From a phage, in NCBI GenBank assembly GCA_026066175.1, contig GCA_026066175.1_4721.1: 64,000 nt of DNA; one strand, given 5' to 3'. The notes under the pieces are model-generated. The model saw nothing but the letters and a program-made list of their open reading frames with translations, did not search any database and was not told where the DNA came from. Positions within the stretch are counted from its first letter, which is position 1, and every line of letters starts with the position of its first letter. Position numbers and translations under genes: made by a program. Of this stretch, positions 3,395 through 64,000 are shown one piece after another.

Positions 3395-3521
3395 TTTACT
3401 ATCCTCGGATTTATTAGGATTTGATTTCCAATATAAGGACAACGCCTTATACAGTCGATTGATGTTGTACATCGCATCTGTGATGTATCACAGAAGTAAT
3501 ATAGCCGTGAAAATTATTGTA

Positions 3522-4322
3522 TTAACGTGTTCTCCTGTCACGATGGGTATATGACTGTAATCCGATGTCCATATGCGGTAACGTCAATGTTTGCCAGATC
3601 TGTTGTGCGTAGCGATCGAGTGTGTAGTCGTTGGTAACGCAGTCAACAGGTTCAATGAGATGCGTCGTATATTGACTTTTCTCTGAAAACGGATCAACGT
3701 TAGCAGTATCTCCTAGTCCGCTTTTCACCGTGAAAACAAGACGAGTAACCACCATCGCTTTACGTTGTTGCTCGTTATAACGAAGGCCACGATAAATCGC
3801 ATAGCTCGCGCCTTTCAGGCTTCGGGTATAACGAAGGTCAGATGTTGTCCCGCCAATTTGATGCAACATCCAGTCTAATGTATCCCGCCAGTATTTATCA
3901 TCCGTGTCAGGTACCTCGATACCGTAACGGGTGGGAAGCATATCCAGAAGCAGTTTGTAGAGTCCACGACGCAAGCCGTGTTCTTCTGTTTCTGATAACA
4001 TCTTTCCTCCAACATAACGAGAAATACGTGTTCGTAAATACGCACGAATAAACATGCACGTCATTACTGTTTTCGAGTGGCTGGTGATGTCTTCAAAAGT
4101 ATCAACACTGAAACTCGTTTCGATCAACCGTCCGTTAAAGTACAATGCAGCTACATACATCGCGCTACTGCTGTCTCGGTCGATGTTCAAACGACCGCAG
4201 ATATTGGCTGCGTCGTTCATGGTAAATTCGAGTTTGTCGTGTTCAATACGGTAGATAATATCTTCTTGGGTTGCCAGGCTCGCAATACGACGATAGCCTG
4301 GAGTAGTACGTTTAACGCTCAT
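3522..4322 (-). CDS. hypothetical protein
   Basis: Start placed at the ATG at 4322 (GAGGA SD 7 nt upstream) rather than the tracked ATG at 4361, which lies inside the conserved TTTATGCCGTC intergenic motif. Confidence 0.5.
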   Translation of the reverse strand: MSVKRTTPGYRRIASLATQEDIIYRIEHDKLEFTMNDAANICGRLNIDRDSSSAMYVAALYFNGRLIETSFSVDTFEDITSHSKTVMTCMFIRAYLRTRISRYVGGKMLSETEEHGLRRGLYKLLLDMLPTRYGIEVPDTDDKYWRDTLDWMLHQIGGTTSDLRYTRSLKGASYAIYRGLRYNEQQRKAMVVTRLVFTVKSGLGDTANVDPFSEKSQYTTHLIEPVDCVTNDYTLDRYAQQIWQTLTLPHMDIGLQSYTHRDRRTR

Positions 4323-7371: not shown

Positions 7372-7397
7372 GTCAGTTTACATCGAACGTTCTTCCA

Positions 7398-9296
7398 TTA
7401 GAACAGGTTGAATGCCCCGCCCATGCCGTTACCGCCCACATTCGGACGATCGTTACGTGCGTAGATGTTACCGCTGATGGTACCCAGACCACGAGCACGT
7501 GCTGCCATGTTACCACGAACAGCGGTACCTGCCAGATGCTGGATGTTCTCAGGACGGATGGTGAAGCCTGCTTCAGCAGCCGCTTCAATCAGTGCCTGCA
7601 GCGCCAGCGGATCGAAATCATAACGCATCGCCCAGCCAGTTTGTTCCCAGCTACCAGACAGAACGCGGTCGATGATTTCGTGACGAGCAACCACACGCTG
7701 AGACATCGACATATCGGTACGGTCGAAGCTGTCTTCCCAAGCTTCTACGGTATCCGGGTTAGTGATGTTCATCATGTACAGATCGTCCATATCACGAATA
7801 TCGTGACGGTTACCGTCCTGGTGGTTGTAGTGACCCAGCGGGATACGGTTACCGGTCGCGTAGACCAGCGGTGAGCCGTACGGATATTTCTTGCTGAAGC
7901 AACCCAGGGTAACATCATCGAACGCACGGAAGAGGGCTTTGTAGCCTTCGGAGTATTCCTGTACGTCCCCTTCAACATTACCCGAGAAGATCTTCTCAGC
8001 CGCCGGGATCATACGCAGCAGCCAGCTGTACTCACCTTCTTCTGGTACGTCGATAGAGATCAGCAGAGACGGATACAGAACCTGTTGCAGGAACTTGTAA
8101 ATCTGCTCGTTGGTTTGCGTAGACAGATCCAGCGGTGCAGTCACTTCAGGATCCAGCACCATCGCCAGAGCACCTGGGTTATGCGGACCAATACCACGAG
8201 CTGCGTTGCTGATTAAAGACTGCGCCCACGCCATGCCGCTGTTCAGCGTAGCGATGGTACCAATCAGACCCAGCACGAAGCTGTTCGGCGTGAACGCATC
8301 CAGTTCCAGCGGATACATGCTGGTCATTACGTAGCGCGGTTGGTACTGTACAGTTGGCGGTACCGGATAACCGTTAACCAGAACAGGACCTTGCTGGAAG
8401 GTCGGGTTCTGCGGGCTGTAGGTCAGATCGATATAACCGGTGGATGCAACCAGACGCTGCTGGCTATCGTAATCGCCCATCGCTTGACGGATGCGGTTAG
8501 AGATAGTTACAGTAATGTCGGAGCGTACCGGGTTACCCGCGATATCGCTATCCTGCATGCCGCTGGTGTTATACTGAACGCTACTGATCGGCTGATCGCT
8601 TGCCATCATACCCAGGTTGAACTGAGGCAGGCCCAGTCTGTCAGCAAAACGCATTTCGGTTGCCGTCTGGATCGCGTTATCCGCTGCGGAAAGCAGGGTG
8701 GTTGCCAGATGCGCAGATTCAGCAGTGATTTCATTGGTCACAACAGCCAGACCAGCGATACGTACCGTACCGTTAGCTTTACCACCGATAGCCGCATACA
8801 TCGCTGCCATGACTTCGTTGATGAACGTGCCGTTCAGGTTATCCACCCAAGTACATGGTACCAGGATGTTACCGTGAGGACCACGTTCTTCACGACGTGG
8901 CAGCGGAGCCAGGCCAGCAACCAGCGGAAGGACGTAACCGAAGAAGTGGTTATGATCACCCACTTTTACACCGCTCATCACAACCAGAGTCGGATACGGT
9001 ACGCTGTACTGATTCGGGTCAACCGCAACAAAGATGAAGTCGTCTTTGAACTGGGTATCTTCCAGATATTTCTCCATCAGACGACGGAGATTCAGTACCT
9101 GCTCGGAGCCGGTATTACGGCTGATACGACGGCTCAGTGTACGGTTAATCGTACGCATCGTATGAGTTACTTTAGGACGGTCAGCAAAATCTGCAGCGGT
9201 TTCGACCGCCTCGTTAGCATGCTGCGCCGTGCGGGTTTCAGCCACGCGGATGTCTACGTTATCGTTACCGTTATTGTTACGTACGTCTAAGCCCAT
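7398..9296 (-). CDS. abundant 632-aa protein; candidate phage-nucleus shell protein (chimallin)
   Basis: Size matches characterised chimallins; codon usage looks high-expression (CGT/GGT/CTG-rich). Own upstream promoter-like element and strong downstream hairpin. Lies immediately upstream of a beta-prime N-terminal gene, the arrangement I recall for phiKZ. No sequence comparison was possible. Confidence 0.45.
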   Translation of the reverse strand: MGLDVRNNNGNDNVDIRVAETRTAQHANEAVETAADFADRPKVTHTMRTINRTLSRRISRNTGSEQVLNLRRLMEKYLEDTQFKDDFIFVAVDPNQYSVPYPTLVVMSGVKVGDHNHFFGYVLPLVAGLAPLPRREERGPHGNILVPCTWVDNLNGTFINEVMAAMYAAIGGKANGTVRIAGLAVVTNEITAESAHLATTLLSAADNAIQTATEMRFADRLGLPQFNLGMMASDQPISSVQYNTSGMQDSDIAGNPVRSDITVTISNRIRQAMGDYDSQQRLVASTGYIDLTYSPQNPTFQQGPVLVNGYPVPPTVQYQPRYVMTSMYPLELDAFTPNSFVLGLIGTIATLNSGMAWAQSLISNAARGIGPHNPGALAMVLDPEVTAPLDLSTQTNEQIYKFLQQVLYPSLLISIDVPEEGEYSWLLRMIPAAEKIFSGNVEGDVQEYSEGYKALFRAFDDVTLGCFSKKYPYGSPLVYATGNRIPLGHYNHQDGNRHDIRDMDDLYMMNITNPDTVEAWEDSFDRTDMSMSQRVVARHEIIDRVLSGSWEQTGWAMRYDFDPLALQALIEAAAEAGFTIRPENIQHLAGTAVRGNMAARARGLGTISGNIYARNDRPNVGGNGMGGAFNLF

Positions 9297-10631: not shown

Positions 10632-10663
10632 CCCTCCTCCTTCCCTGATGGGTTGGAGGAGGG
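10632..10663. terminator. bidirectional terminator hairpin between convergent genes
   Basis: 9-bp stem CCCTCCTCC / GGAGGAGGG with a 14-nt loop; near-identical to the hairpin at 60128-60160. Confidence 0.5.
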
Positions 10664-18246: not shown

Positions 18247-19089
18247 ATGGGTGCTATTGACTACAGTGTCGATCGTATCTGCCGTACAATACCGGCAGAT
18301 ATTCTACAGTATTGCTATATCGATCGTTACGATTGGCGTAACCGCTATCCGCGTTCCGTTGAAGATATCATTACCGATTGGGTAATCCGTAAACGGGTTA
18401 TCGGAGACATCGATATCTACGGGGGGCTACAGACCGTTATTCCTCTTGATGATGCAGGCGTTACGATTGAAGAAGTCACCATTAACTGTTATGTTTTCCA
18501 TATTCCGCTGGAAGCGACACAAGGACGTTATATCACGTCAGCCTTGTCGATTATCTCTGGGAGCGTGAATAACTACGGAATCAACTATAACGGTCAATGG
18601 GGGGCGTTCAACCAAACCCAGTTCCAACGACAGCTTTGCGGATGGAACCCCGCAAGCAACGCATTGCAACAAGGGATGAATGCATTCGGTCCGGTGAACA
18701 TCCTCAGTACTGCTAACGTTGACATCATCGCACCTAACACCATCATGGTGAACAACGTCACACCGGTTCAATTCCCGTTGAGCTTACGCTGTTTCCTTGC
18801 CCATGATCCAGAACTAACCAACCTCAGCATGGAAGTCTGGAACGACTTTTACAAGCTCTGTTTATACGCCACACAAAGTGACATCTATAACAGAACCGTT
18901 ATTCGTCTCGATCGTGGTGTTACCGCACAAGGTCAAGAAGTCGGTGCATTCAAGGAATACATCGATCGCTTCGCTGATGCGGAAAACACCTACCAGGAAT
19001 TCCTGAACGAGACGTGGGCAGGCGTTGCTGCATGGAACGACCCACAAACGAAACGTCGGGCAATACGTCTGCAAACCGGTTACTTCTGA
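18247..19089 (+). CDS. hypothetical protein
   Basis: 280-aa ORF, AAAGGGG SD; lone plus-strand gene followed by a hairpin at about 19099-19128. Confidence 0.5.
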   Translation: MGAIDYSVDRICRTIPADILQYCYIDRYDWRNRYPRSVEDIITDWVIRKRVIGDIDIYGGLQTVIPLDDAGVTIEEVTINCYVFHIPLEATQGRYITSALSIISGSVNNYGINYNGQWGAFNQTQFQRQLCGWNPASNALQQGMNAFGPVNILSTANVDIIAPNTIMVNNVTPVQFPLSLRCFLAHDPELTNLSMEVWNDFYKLCLYATQSDIYNRTVIRLDRGVTAQGQEVGAFKEYIDRFADAENTYQEFLNETWAGVAAWNDPQTKRRAIRLQTGYF

Positions 19090-19590
19090 TTATCTGTGGT
19101 TCCCTCCCTCGGCGAGTTCGAGGGAGGTCTCAACAAAGCCAGCAGCAACACCACTCGCCGATATCTGTAAGGTATCGTTGAAGATAAGATCGTCAGGTAA
19201 ACAATCGAAGTAAATACCATATTGCGTGTTTGTCGTATTAATGATCAATGACGGCGTCGGTCGCGTTTTCTTAATGTCGGTGATATACAAACGTAAGAAC
19301 GTTTCACCGTCTTCGCTATCCGTAAAACGATACGCGTTACCAGAAAACTCGACACGTGGCGTAACGATAAACTGCACGCGATCGTCAGCCGGATGGATAT
19401 TTAGCCACCGTGCGATATCATCTGTGTTCACGTTGTGCATACTCAGCACGGTATACGCAAACAACGTAGCATGATGTTTGGAATAATGCAGTACATAAGC
19501 CGCATCTTTCTTTTTGTGAACCCCTTCAACGTATTCTATTGTCGTGTAGCCTGATTTATAAAGCTTTACTTGCGGTTTCTCATTCATCAT
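19090..19590 (-). CDS. hypothetical protein (start at internal ATG giving ATGA overlap)
   Basis: Tracked ORF 19090..19671; M28 start forms an ATGA overlap with the stop of the upstream gene. Confidence 0.4.
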   Translation of the reverse strand: MMNEKPQVKLYKSGYTTIEYVEGVHKKKDAAYVLHYSKHHATLFAYTVLSMHNVNTDDIARWLNIHPADDRVQFIVTPRVEFSGNAYRFTDSEDGETFLRLYITDIKKTRPTPSLIINTTNTQYGIYFDCLPDDLIFNDTLQISASGVAAGFVETSLELAEGGNHR

Positions 19591-25435: not shown

Positions 25436-25464
25436 CCTCCTCTGGGAATGGAACCCAGAGGAGG
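25436..25464. terminator. bidirectional terminator hairpin
   Basis: 11-bp stem CCTCCTCTGGG / CCCAGAGGAGG with loop AATGGAA, between convergent genes. Confidence 0.5.
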
Positions 25465-36565: not shown

Positions 36566-36600
36566 ACATCCTCCTTCCCCGGCCTGATGGCTAGGGAAGG
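36566..36600. terminator. bidirectional terminator hairpin
   Basis: Stem ATCCTCCTTCCC / GGGAAGGAGGAT preceded by a T/A-run, between convergent genes. Confidence 0.5.
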
Positions 36601-36615
36601 AGGATTATGGTTTAT

Positions 36616-60110: not shown

Positions 60111-60127
60111 TATTCGCTGCATAGAGC

Positions 60128-60160
60128 CCTCCTCCTTCCCTTCCGGGTTGGAGGAGGGCT
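60128..60160. terminator. bidirectional terminator hairpin (same repeat family as 10632-10663)
   Basis: Stem GCCCTCCTCC / GGAGGAGGGC with loop TTCCCTTCCGGGTT. Confidence 0.5.
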
Positions 60161-61261: not shown

Positions 61262-61296
61262 ACGGCATAAAGCCTACCCACACAATGGTGGGTAGG
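61262..61296 (-). promoter_or_regulatory. terminator hairpin plus TTTATGCCGTA motif
   Basis: Minus strand 11-bp-stem hairpin AGCCTACCCAC / GTGGGTAGGCT followed by TTTATGCCGTATTTCTTTTTT, about 26 nt upstream of ATG 61232. Confidence 0.5.
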
Positions 61297-61314
61297 CTAA
61301 GATCAACATCGATG

Positions 61315-62428: not shown

Positions 62429-62459
62429 AGGTAATATAGTCCTGATATTTTTTTCAATA
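62429..62459 (-). promoter_or_regulatory. conserved AT-rich promoter-like element
   Basis: Plus AGGTAATATAGTCCTGATATTTTTTTCAATA (minus TATTGAAAAAAATATCAGGACTATATTACCT), in the divergent intergenic region 62340-62473. Confidence 0.45.
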
Positions 62460-62473
62460 CGGAGAATAGAATA

Positions 62474-63088
62474 ATGAGCGAATACGGTGTTGTCCCCGTA
62501 GATGATGAACCGCAAGAGGCACCCGATAAATTCGAGGTCCGTCTCGATGAAACTCGTAACATCCGTCAACGATTTATTCAGCGTCTTGAAATGCTGTTAG
62601 ATAGCGAATTCAAGGAATTTGAGCATAATCCCGGTGCGGATAATAAAGCCATCGTTGACGTAGAAAACGTCGACCGAATCGGGAAACTATTGCTGAAATC
62701 GTTGGGTGATAATGATAAAGTCGACTTAACGCTGAAACGCATTAGTGCTGACCAGGCCATGAACGACAGCGCATTGAAAACGGCGCAGGCCCTAACCGAA
62801 ACCATGCTGCGCCGCTTAGGTCAGATGGATCAACATCCTCTCGCAGCAGGGGCTGTTTATGATGGCGAAGTCGTGCAACCGGTTACACCGGAAGAGCGCG
62901 ATCGTCGACTTGGTTTTGCGTCGTTGGAAGAATTCGACAGCAAAGAGTTTTCACCGGGTATTCTCATCCAGGGACGTGTTGAAGAAACCAGCGATGCTTT
63001 TTACGCTAGAATGGCTCAACTGACGGCGTCGGTTCGTGAAGAGGTGTCTCAGCAGATGACTGCTGAGGACGCACGCGAGGGGGAATAA
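62474..63088 (+). CDS. acidic hypothetical protein
   Basis: 204 aa, GGAG SD, Glu/Asp-rich. Confidence 0.5.
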   Translation: MSEYGVVPVDDEPQEAPDKFEVRLDETRNIRQRFIQRLEMLLDSEFKEFEHNPGADNKAIVDVENVDRIGKLLLKSLGDNDKVDLTLKRISADQAMNDSALKTAQALTETMLRRLGQMDQHPLAAGAVYDGEVVQPVTPEERDRRLGFASLEEFDSKEFSPGILIQGRVEETSDAFYARMAQLTASVREEVSQQMTAEDAREGE

Positions 63089-63782
63089 AATAACTGAACC
63101 ATTTTATTCCAAAGAACCGCATGAACATCACGGGTGCGTTAGAAAGTTCAATCGCTTCGTAAAGTTGATCGTAAGCCAGATCGGAGTCAGGAATGGTTTC
63201 GCTGATCCGTCTGGCTACCACCAATACGTTACAAATCGGATTATCTTCCAACAGCATTTGATTCGGGAGATGCCAACGTTTGAAATCGTAAAAGAACATC
63301 GCGTTATACGTTTTACGGATTTCTGCGGGATGCATCGTCGCCGGATGACGGTAGATAATCTCGACGATATCTTGCGCACCGAGATACTGTTGAATACCCT
63401 CTTTTAACGCAACAGCTGCATCACCGACAAACTCAAACGGGTATGTGTTGACATGAACCGAAAAATCCGGCGATGCGATACCGGTTAATCGATCCTTCAT
63501 GTAATCCGCAACCACATAACACAACCGCCACATTAACTCCGTAGGAATGCATTTATCGAGAATGGTTTCGTCGATATTTGCTAACGCGTCCTTAAACTCC
63601 TCGTAAGTATAAGTAACGCCCGCCTGTTTCTCAGGTTCCAGGTTATAGGGCCTGTAATGCCATTTCTTTCCCCACTTCCTGATCGCTTCTGGATCCAACG
63701 TTGTCGCTACTGCCATCTCAATGTCGAGCAGCGCTTCGAGTTCGACATAAACCGTAACATACGCTGCGCTTTCAATCATCAT
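63006..63782 (-). CDS. hypothetical protein
   Basis: Tracked ORF starts at a GTG; first ATG at 63782, coupled to the upstream stop (TGATG) with a GGAGAG SD. The 3' end overlaps the convergent plus gene by about 83 nt. Confidence 0.45.
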   Translation of the reverse strand: MMIESAAYVTVYVELEALLDIEMAVATTLDPEAIRKWGKKWHYRPYNLEPEKQAGVTYTYEEFKDALANIDETILDKCIPTELMWRLCYVVADYMKDRLTGIASPDFSVHVNTYPFEFVGDAAVALKEGIQQYLGAQDIVEIIYRHPATMHPAEIRKTYNAMFFYDFKRWHLPNQMLLEDNPICNVLVVARRISETIPDSDLAYDQLYEAIELSNAPVMFMRFFGIKWFSYFIPPRVRPQQSSAETPLHEPTPSVEPF

Positions 63783-64000
63783 CACTCTCCAGTATTACCC
63801 GTTAGCATCTGCGCGTCAGGCGACGTTGCCATTTTCTTCTCGTACTCTTTGGTTTGTTTGAAGACCAACTCACCGATTTCTTCCAGTTCTTCAACGGTGA
63901 CGGTATGCAAATAGAGTAGCGGAATAATCCAGGTGTTCGCATTAAGCATGTCGCGGATATCATCAACGGATGGGAGTTCGGTAAAGAACTGTTCATCAAC
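63782..64000 (-). CDS. hypothetical protein, partial (C-terminal 72 codons; gene continues beyond the window)
   Basis: Frame translating ...VDEQFFTELPSVDDIRDMLNANTWIIPLLYLHTVTVEELEEIGELVFKQTKEYEKKMATSPDAQMLTGNTGE-stop is open to the window edge; stop TGA overlaps the downstream ATG. Confidence 0.45.
   Translation of the reverse strand, partial: VDEQFFTELPSVDDIRDMLNANTWIIPLLYLHTVTVEELEEIGELVFKQTKEYEKKMATSPDAQMLTGNTGE

Follow-up and report, generated by a model that had tools for sequence, protein, structure and literature searches.

Convergent genes of compact bacterial and phage genomes can overlap at their 3′ ends, such that two bona fide genes on opposite strands share 3′ coding ends that are poorly conserved. 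In the known cases one frame that lacks a stop codon of its own runs on to the next one available. Most of these overlaps extend over a few to a few tens of nucleotides. Two other arrangements have been described at junctions of this type. Bidirectional intrinsic terminators occupy the same position between convergent genes, and in excludon-type antisense regulation the units are likewise convergent.

We have analysed a junction of convergent genes in a 64 kb stretch of phage DNA (here called the window, at its full length). The window is 87% identical in nucleotide sequence to Escherichia phage vB_EcoM_Goslar, a nucleus-forming jumbo phage, and judged from this comparison its phage is a Goslar-like chimallivirus. 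The two genes, named here plus and minus by strand, overlap tail to tail in the manner of the known 3′-3′ overlaps. It differs from them in being longer than most (83-98 nt), and in that each gene has its stop codon within codons that are conserved in the other. In addition, its length can be traced through six related lineages (29-98 nt). Compared with the gp199/gp198 pair of Goslar, the window has an overlap of 83 and not 98 nt, and a hairpin of its own at 63047-63068. In the literature we came across no remark on the Goslar overlap. The hairpins within the overlap differ from bidirectional intrinsic terminators, being A+U-rich or restricted to one lineage and situated in coding sequence. 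As in an excludon the 3′ ends of the two RNAs would be able to pair; unlike in an excludon the complementarity lies in coding sequence and not in long UTRs, and the Goslar genes share a temporal class.

Results

The overlap and its reading frames

The coordinates of the two genes and of the features discussed below are collected in Table 1. A tail-to-tail overlap of about 83 nt was reported in the first-pass annotation, and is borne out by both the ORF list and the sequence. In-frame ATG codons follow the GTG start of the minus gene at 63782, which was the start chosen in that annotation, and at 63779, which matches the start annotated in Goslar. The overlap encodes residues 178-204 of the plus protein (ARMAQLTASVREEVSQQMTAEDAREGE) and residues 233-259 of the minus protein (FIPPRVRPQQSSAETPLHEPTPSVEPF). 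The plus gene ends with TAA at 63086-63088 and the minus gene with TAG at 63006-63008. Within the overlap codon position 1 lies opposite position 1, while position 3 of either frame lies opposite position 2, so that hardly any change is silent in both frames.

Table 1. Position of the genes, the elements of their overlap and the hairpins at other convergent junctions, numbered along the window
Feature	Position	Strand	Remarks
Plus gene	62474..63088	+	ATG start, 204 aa; ORF list
Minus gene	63006..63785	-	GTG start at 63785, 259 aa; ORF list
Tail-to-tail overlap	63006..63088	both	83 nt common to the plus and minus ORFs
Plus-frame conserved edge, DAFYAR	62993..63010	+	aa 174-179; DAFY-x-R in 6/6 lineages
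Minus-frame conserved edge, WFSYFIPPR	63075..63101	-	aa 229-237; Phe-Ile codons TTT ATT hold the plus stop
Weakly constrained middle	63011..63074	both	length and sequence vary among lineages
Inverted repeat, GGAATAAAAT-N9-ATTTTATTCC	63082..63110	both	perfect 10 bp, A+U-rich
Hairpin, TCTCAGCAG-ATGA-CTGCTGAGG	63047..63068	both	window lineage only; at the 15-nt indel
Hairpin at junction 10629/10669	10632-10663		CCTCC...GGAGG, intergenic
Hairpin at junction 25296/25485	25436-25464		CCTCC...GGAGG, intergenic
Hairpin at junction 36546/36616	36568-36605		CCTCC...GGAGG, intergenic
Hairpin at junction 60110/60165	60126-60159		CCTCC...GGAGG, intergenic

At this locus the window is almost identical to a metagenome contig (JACXXQ010000003.1, 208,844 bp; L018), and it has just 87-89% DNA identity to Goslar and six other Goslar-like genomes. 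The phage of the window is probably a separate species of the genus Goslarvirus.

Both reading frames are genes

The minus gene is the last of a block that holds the gene for the virion RNA polymerase beta subunit, and lies downstream of the latter (phiKZ gp149) and of a gp148-like gene. The order gp149, gp148, gp147 is seen in Goslar, LucasX, FLC8, Special G, phiKZ, Proteus phage 10, RTH11, SNUABM_37, pVa-21 and Eowyn. The minus protein is 92.4% identical to its ortholog Goslar HOV27_gp198, with the orientation and stop sites alike, and 100% identical to a protein encoded on JACXXQ010000003.1. It matches phrog_3328, the phiKZ gp147 family, with E 5.6e-21 (residues 11-235, profile positions 6-235 of 242), and a tblastn search with it gave matches in 28 phage records, PHIKZ147 among them.

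We note that the edge gene of contig L011 (the Goslar gp193 position; 7394-8615) encodes 862 aa with matches to LAGLIDADG_3 and Hom_end. Its counterparts encode 505 aa in L023 (7394-8615) and 502 aa in L010 (7339-8588). This suggests a putative intein or homing-endonuclease insertion in one lineage.

The plus gene is the sole plus-strand gene within the minus-strand array. Its protein is 95.5% identical to the ortholog Goslar HOV27_gp199, again with orientation and stop sites alike. It matches the phrog_5894 profile (E 6.7e-6, residues 56-192), more weakly than the minus protein matches its own family. Neither the plus nor the minus protein has a match in Pfam. Given that antisense frames are often open in this genome, and that the plus protein is without a Pfam match, it could be asked whether the plus ORF is an open antisense frame and not a gene. 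This is scarcely credible. Relatives of the plus protein at 45-46% identity, of equal length and in synteny, were returned by an exhaustive representative search, and a further search added relatives with 86 and 54% identity to one of these. (Word-indexed protein searches returned only near-identical clusters; it took the exhaustive search to reach the intermediates.) Moreover, phrog_5894 is matched by the convergent neighbours in the distant chimalliviruses LucasX, FLC8, Special G and Proteus phage 10 (E 1e-6 to 1e-10); P0003 matched with an E of only 0.0075, and P0004 and P0007 taken singly gave no match.

The pattern of substitution refutes the reading of the plus ORF as a mere antisense frame. 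Variable sites were counted in nine Goslar-like genomes (the window, L007-L009 and L018-L022). By codon position (1/2/3) the plus gene has 12/4/70 of them outside the overlap, and the minus gene 14/8/112. Between L011 and L023 the core of the plus gene has 20/10/69 differences by codon position, and that of the minus gene 18/10/80. The strong third-position bias shows that both genes are real, with purifying selection evidently acting on each.

A Shine-Dalgarno sequence GGAG at 62461 lies 10 nt upstream of the plus start, and L010, L011, L023 and L024, the four distant lineages, have a purine-rich box of the GGAG type with equal spacing to the start. The conserved box GGTAATRTAG upstream of the plus gene was considered as its promoter and rejected, as it recurs on the opposite strand before five minus-strand genes; it is better read as a putative early promoter of the adjoining gp200-like gene. 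A conserved TATG late motif was likewise not seen for the plus gene. The minus-strand motif CTAYATTAC(C) occurs at 3496, 23978, 38277, 46180 and 62430-62440. All copies are intergenic, each placed shortly before the start of a minus-strand gene (3472, 23973, 38153, 46138 and 62339). The motif is kept upstream of the gp200-like gene in L010, L011, L023 and L024. Early promoters of the virion RNA polymerase have been described as AT-rich (PMC7598289). As a candidate the motif fits this description. It is also consistent with the RNA-seq classes, in which gp200 and gp201 are the sole early genes of this part of the Goslar genome.

Other searches gave no basis for assigning a function to either protein. 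No sequence relatives of either were found in the PDB with profiles A2 and A3. AlphaFold2 (AF2) models of both, built on alignments 3-4 sequences deep, were of low confidence (pLDDT 47.0 and 47.8), and Foldseek comparison of these models with the PDB returned nothing at E<=0.001. In the literature we found no paper naming Goslar gp198 or gp199 or discussing the function of phiKZ gp147, and a full-text search with TATATTAC gave nothing informative.

The overlap in related lineages

Each of the nine Goslar-like genomes has the overlap, as do four more distant lineages represented by fully syntenic contigs. The overlap measures 29 nt in L010, 53 nt in L024, 62 nt in L023, 68 nt in L011-L014, 83 nt in the window and L018, and 98 nt in the seven genomes of the Goslar group, where gp199 and gp198 are so annotated in RefSeq NC_048170. 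Scans of IMG/VR and of metagenomes recovered only Goslar-like genomes. The six lineages are non-independent samples, three of them using one minus stop site, and it is recurrence in these lineages, rather than length, that shows the overlap to be a stable feature. Stop codons in this antisense phase arise at 5.3% per codon in the genes of the window, with a mean open run of 17 codons. The chance of at least 27 open codons is P ~0.21-0.23, so that the length of the overlap is unremarkable. The observed read-through of the minus frame is ~9-32 codons with a mean of ~21, which on these figures is what would be expected of a frame that has no stop of its own.

The two ends of the overlap behave differently. 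The plus stop (TAA or TGA) is at one fixed site in 6/6 lineages, within the minus codons Phe-Ile/Thr (TTY-AYT). The minus stop uses four sites among the six lineages. In the window, Goslar and L011 it is on GCT-AGA, i.e. the Ala-Arg codons of DAFYAR, which hold CTA (the complement of TAG) at 63006-63008; L010, L023 and L024 have one site each. Alignment of the orthologous C-termini shows that the edges DAFYxR and WFSYFIPPR are conserved, and that the middle of both tails is variable. Between L011 and L023 the DAFYAR edge has only plus-frame synonymous changes. The sequence WFSYFIPPR is invariant in the window, Goslar, L010 and L011, is WFSYFTPP in L024, and its FS is invariant throughout the gp147 family. 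The codons for IPPR are the antisense of the acidic end of the plus protein, which is EEE in 4/6 lineages with the variants EGE, EEG and QEE. This acidic terminus may be a mere mirror of the PP codons of the minus motif.

Between the edges lies a 15-nt in-frame indel after 63062, where the window is without 15 nt that are present in the Goslar group. The minus tails of the lineages read RVRPQQSSAETPLHEPTPSVEPF, RKAPEEPAQTPESSSNGV, RKAPAEPTPPPQPSST, VKKTPPPQKTPHP and RKPQP; plus tails include MAQLTASVREEVSQQMTAEDAREGE and LRSMTTQASEQALQGPSEEE. In the distal 4-27 residues of the minus tail neither length nor sequence is conserved. The earlier suggestion that one C-terminal extension may be spurious does not stand as a matter of annotation, since there are no earlier in-frame stops, purifying selection acts on both genes and the overlap is kept. 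In a weaker, evolutionary sense it has some substance: the distal minus tail is unconserved and ends at a chance antisense stop, while the plus stop is fixed.

Constraint within the overlap

A region under dual constraint (i.e. overprinted) is expected to have a lowered substitution rate. This was not seen across the overlap, where only the short edges are conserved. In the nine Goslar-like genomes 13 of 83 sites vary in the overlap, compared with 86/532 and 134/697 in the flanks, and the variable sites of the overlap are split evenly over the phase classes (3/5/5). In the 75-nt tail L011 and L023 differ at 17 sites, distributed 6/4/7 over the plus codon positions without third-position bias; divergence is 23% in the tail and 16-18% in the cores. 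Toward the right-hand edge, three changes (63075, 63081 and 63084) leave the minus protein as it is but alter the plus protein. Overall, synonymous changes tend to be in the plus frame on the left (5:1) and in the minus frame on the right (2:4), a trend with Fisher p = 0.24. The segment 63001-63039 is rather invariant in the Goslar group and the window, with two variable sites, and this could reflect some dual constraint.

Hairpins in the overlap

The 5′ arm of the inverted repeat at 63082-63110 carries the plus stop, and the loop carries the Phe-Ser codons. There is no U-tract on either strand, and the distance from the repeat down to the minus stop is 76 nt. If this hairpin terminated transcription in both directions the minus mRNA would stop directly behind WFSYFIPP and the 22-residue distal tail of the minus protein would be absent; alternatively the plus protein might end early, at some signal that has escaped recognition. 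We consider it very improbable that one of the tails is not made in this way. In its favour, the perfect 10-bp hairpin coincides exactly with the plus stop and with the point where the conserved minus core ends, and in L009 a double substitution from A-U to G-C keeps the pairing. The distal minus tail is unconserved, as shown above, and in the low-confidence AF2 model it is coil with pLDDT 27-41. However, the hairpin is A+U-rich, and folds only modestly better than shuffled sequences (ΔG -10.6/-14.1 kcal/mol, z -1.7/-2.3). The covariation is non-significant, being equalled in 212/500 shuffles, and L020 has a single-change unpaired intermediate. The hairpin is confined to the Goslar group and the window, and is missing from L010, L011, L023 and L024 despite their overlaps. 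Neither ORF has an earlier in-frame stop, and a minus mRNA ending here would be stopless, which normally leads to ribosome stalling and protein tagging.

A second hairpin, at 63047-63068, forms in the window a tight 9-bp stem with a 4-nt loop, and the 15-nt indel coincides with the loop. In the Goslar counterpart (L007 ~3575-3610) the stem is interrupted and weaker and encloses a 17-nt insert; one of its pairs (C-G to A-U) seems to be compensated. This feature is missing from L010. The two hairpins combined have z -4.8 in the window, -1.6 in Goslar and ~0 in L010 and L011. An Rfam search of the overlap gave no match at E<=1. A clade-wide conserved RNA element was rejected, given the lack of an Rfam match, the non-significant covariation and the absence of excess folding in Goslar, L010 and L011.

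The junction compared with others in the window and in the family

The first-pass annotation had the overlap free of a terminator. This is confirmed by a scan for a bidirectional intrinsic terminator (a G+C-rich stem and U-rich tail past both stops), which found none at the overlap; the one hit nearby, a weak 5-bp match, falls within the minus gene (63133..63117). The further statement that the junction is in this respect unlike the others of the window holds for the hairpin, which is present at the others and lacking here. It does not hold for an intergenic gap as a general rule. Four junctions have gaps of 39-188 nt with the strong hairpins listed in Table 1. At 19089/19090 the gap is 0 and a GC-rich hairpin (19103-19127) lies within the 3′ coding end of the minus ORF; in the Goslar equivalent gp233 and gp232 overlap by 10 nt (L030 1081-1090). 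No other convergent junction of the window overlaps by more than 4 nt.

The hairpins of the junctions share one type, CCTCCTCC...GGAGGAGG, and the four that are intergenic are then followed by (C)TTATG(T/G)TT on the plus strand. The core of the phiKZ late promoter is T-3ATG+1 (PMC7598289). The conserved TATG that follows the stems resembles this core, or else may be part of the terminator.

The convergent arrangement of a gp147-like gene and a phrog_5894 gene is found in eight other chimalliviruses (the four named above being those for which the profile match of the neighbour is shown), with gaps that range from +44 to -20 nt: RTH11 +44, LucasX +42, Eowyn +22, Proteus phage 10 +2, Special G 0, pEa_SNUABM_37 0, FLC8 -4 and pVa-21 -20 nt. 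In phiKZ itself the convergent neighbour of gp147 differs, and is gp146. The junctions of RTH11, LucasX and Eowyn contain a perfect 9-bp GC-rich palindromic hairpin, and the five without room for a terminator have none. Since junctions without hairpin and without gap occur in other chimalliviruses, the Goslar clade is the far end of a continuum.

Expression of the two genes

RNA-seq at 30 min with and without knock-down of ChmA has been tabulated for Goslar (Armbruster et al., Supplementary Table 2; bioRxiv 10.1101/2023.09.20.558163). On knock-down gp190-gp199 and gp202-gp206 drop by log2 3-8, and gp200 and gp201 do not (10.1101/2023.09.20.558163). In these published counts the change for gp198 and gp199 is log2 -3.3 to -6.3. 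Both genes are in the nucleus-dependent class, and the adjoining gp200 and gp201 are early. We note that an 11-bp hairpin, AGCCTACCCAC-ACAATG-GTGGGTAGGCT, separates the gp201-like gene of the window from the gp202-like gene (61271-61298). Going by the RNA-seq classes, this is the very place where the early unit of two genes (gp200-gp201 in Goslar) is expected to end. The NEB E7770 library kit is non-directional. This was the kit used for the Goslar RNA-seq (10.1101/2023.09.20.558163). Owing to the kit, sense and antisense reads are apparently merged.

Because there are no earlier stops, normal termination of translation requires that each mRNA run for 83 nt or more within the other gene. It was suggested in the first-pass annotation that antisense overlap may couple the expression of the two genes. 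The overlap and the terminator-less junction might thus be functional, with pairing of the 3′ ends or head-on transcription coupling or limiting the plus gene and the last gene of the late block. This could occur through an RNA duplex processed by RNase III, or through transcriptional interference that replaces a terminator. Both mRNAs must span the shared 83 nt to include both stops, and with gp198 and gp199 in a single nucleus-dependent class simultaneous transcription is possible. The pair is convergent across the Chimalliviridae, mostly without a terminator, and in every lineage examined the plus gene is the lone inverted gene in a co-directional array. We nevertheless regard a functional overlap as rather unlikely. 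The Goslar RNA-seq is apparently unstranded, so that co-occurring sense transcripts are not separable in it. The spacing of the two genes in the family ranges from -98 to +44 nt, and three lineages have a strong bidirectional hairpin, so that pairing of the 3′ ends is no family requirement. Furthermore, the middle of the overlap has no conserved structure or sequence.

Discussion

The observations are in our opinion quite probably explained by a genuine, inherited 3′-3′ coding overlap that results from tight packing of a terminator-less convergent pair, and whose tails evolve fast. The plus stop is built into the conserved minus motif WFSYF(I/T)PP, and since it lies within conserved minus codons some overlap is unavoidable in the Goslar clade. 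The minus frame, having no stop of its own after this motif, continues through the antisense of the plus tail to the first chance stop. In the window, Goslar and L011 that stop is the CTA which the conserved GCT-AGA of the plus gene contains. Constraint is confined to the edges of the overlap, one frame at each, and the middle evolves freely in both frames and accepts in-frame indels.

On this explanation both tails are presumably translated, given the absence of earlier stops. The distal minus tail would be a passenger rich in Pro, Ser, Glu and Thr with little or no sequence-specific function, and the plus tail probably a loosely constrained linker with an acidic end. The complementary 3′ ends appear to be tolerated and not exploited. 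The overlap is ordinary in kind though rather long; it belongs to a known type and is already visible in the annotation of Goslar.

A more ambitious reading is that the lone inverted phrog_5894 gene and its terminator-less, often overlapping junction with the gp147-like gene could together form a conserved regulatory device of the Chimalliviridae, which by head-on transcription or by pairing of the 3′ ends would end or tune the late operon in which a virion RNA polymerase subunit is encoded. Such a device would act at the border with the early gp200-gp201 unit, in place of a terminator for the phage RNA polymerase. We think this quite improbable. If it were true, the junction would provide an entry point to the termination of transcription by chimallivirus RNA polymerases, which is poorly understood.

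There are practical consequences for work on these phages. Both ORFs should be annotated at full length in Goslar-like genomes, and neither tail trimmed as an artefact. In engineering or knock-down of Goslar gp198 or gp199 (by Cas13 or antisense reagents), edits in the final 83-98 nt affect both genes. The locus also provides a clean, small example of how an overlap is locked in place when the stop codon of one gene lies in conserved codons of its partner, while the other end of the overlap then drifts with the frequency of chance stops.
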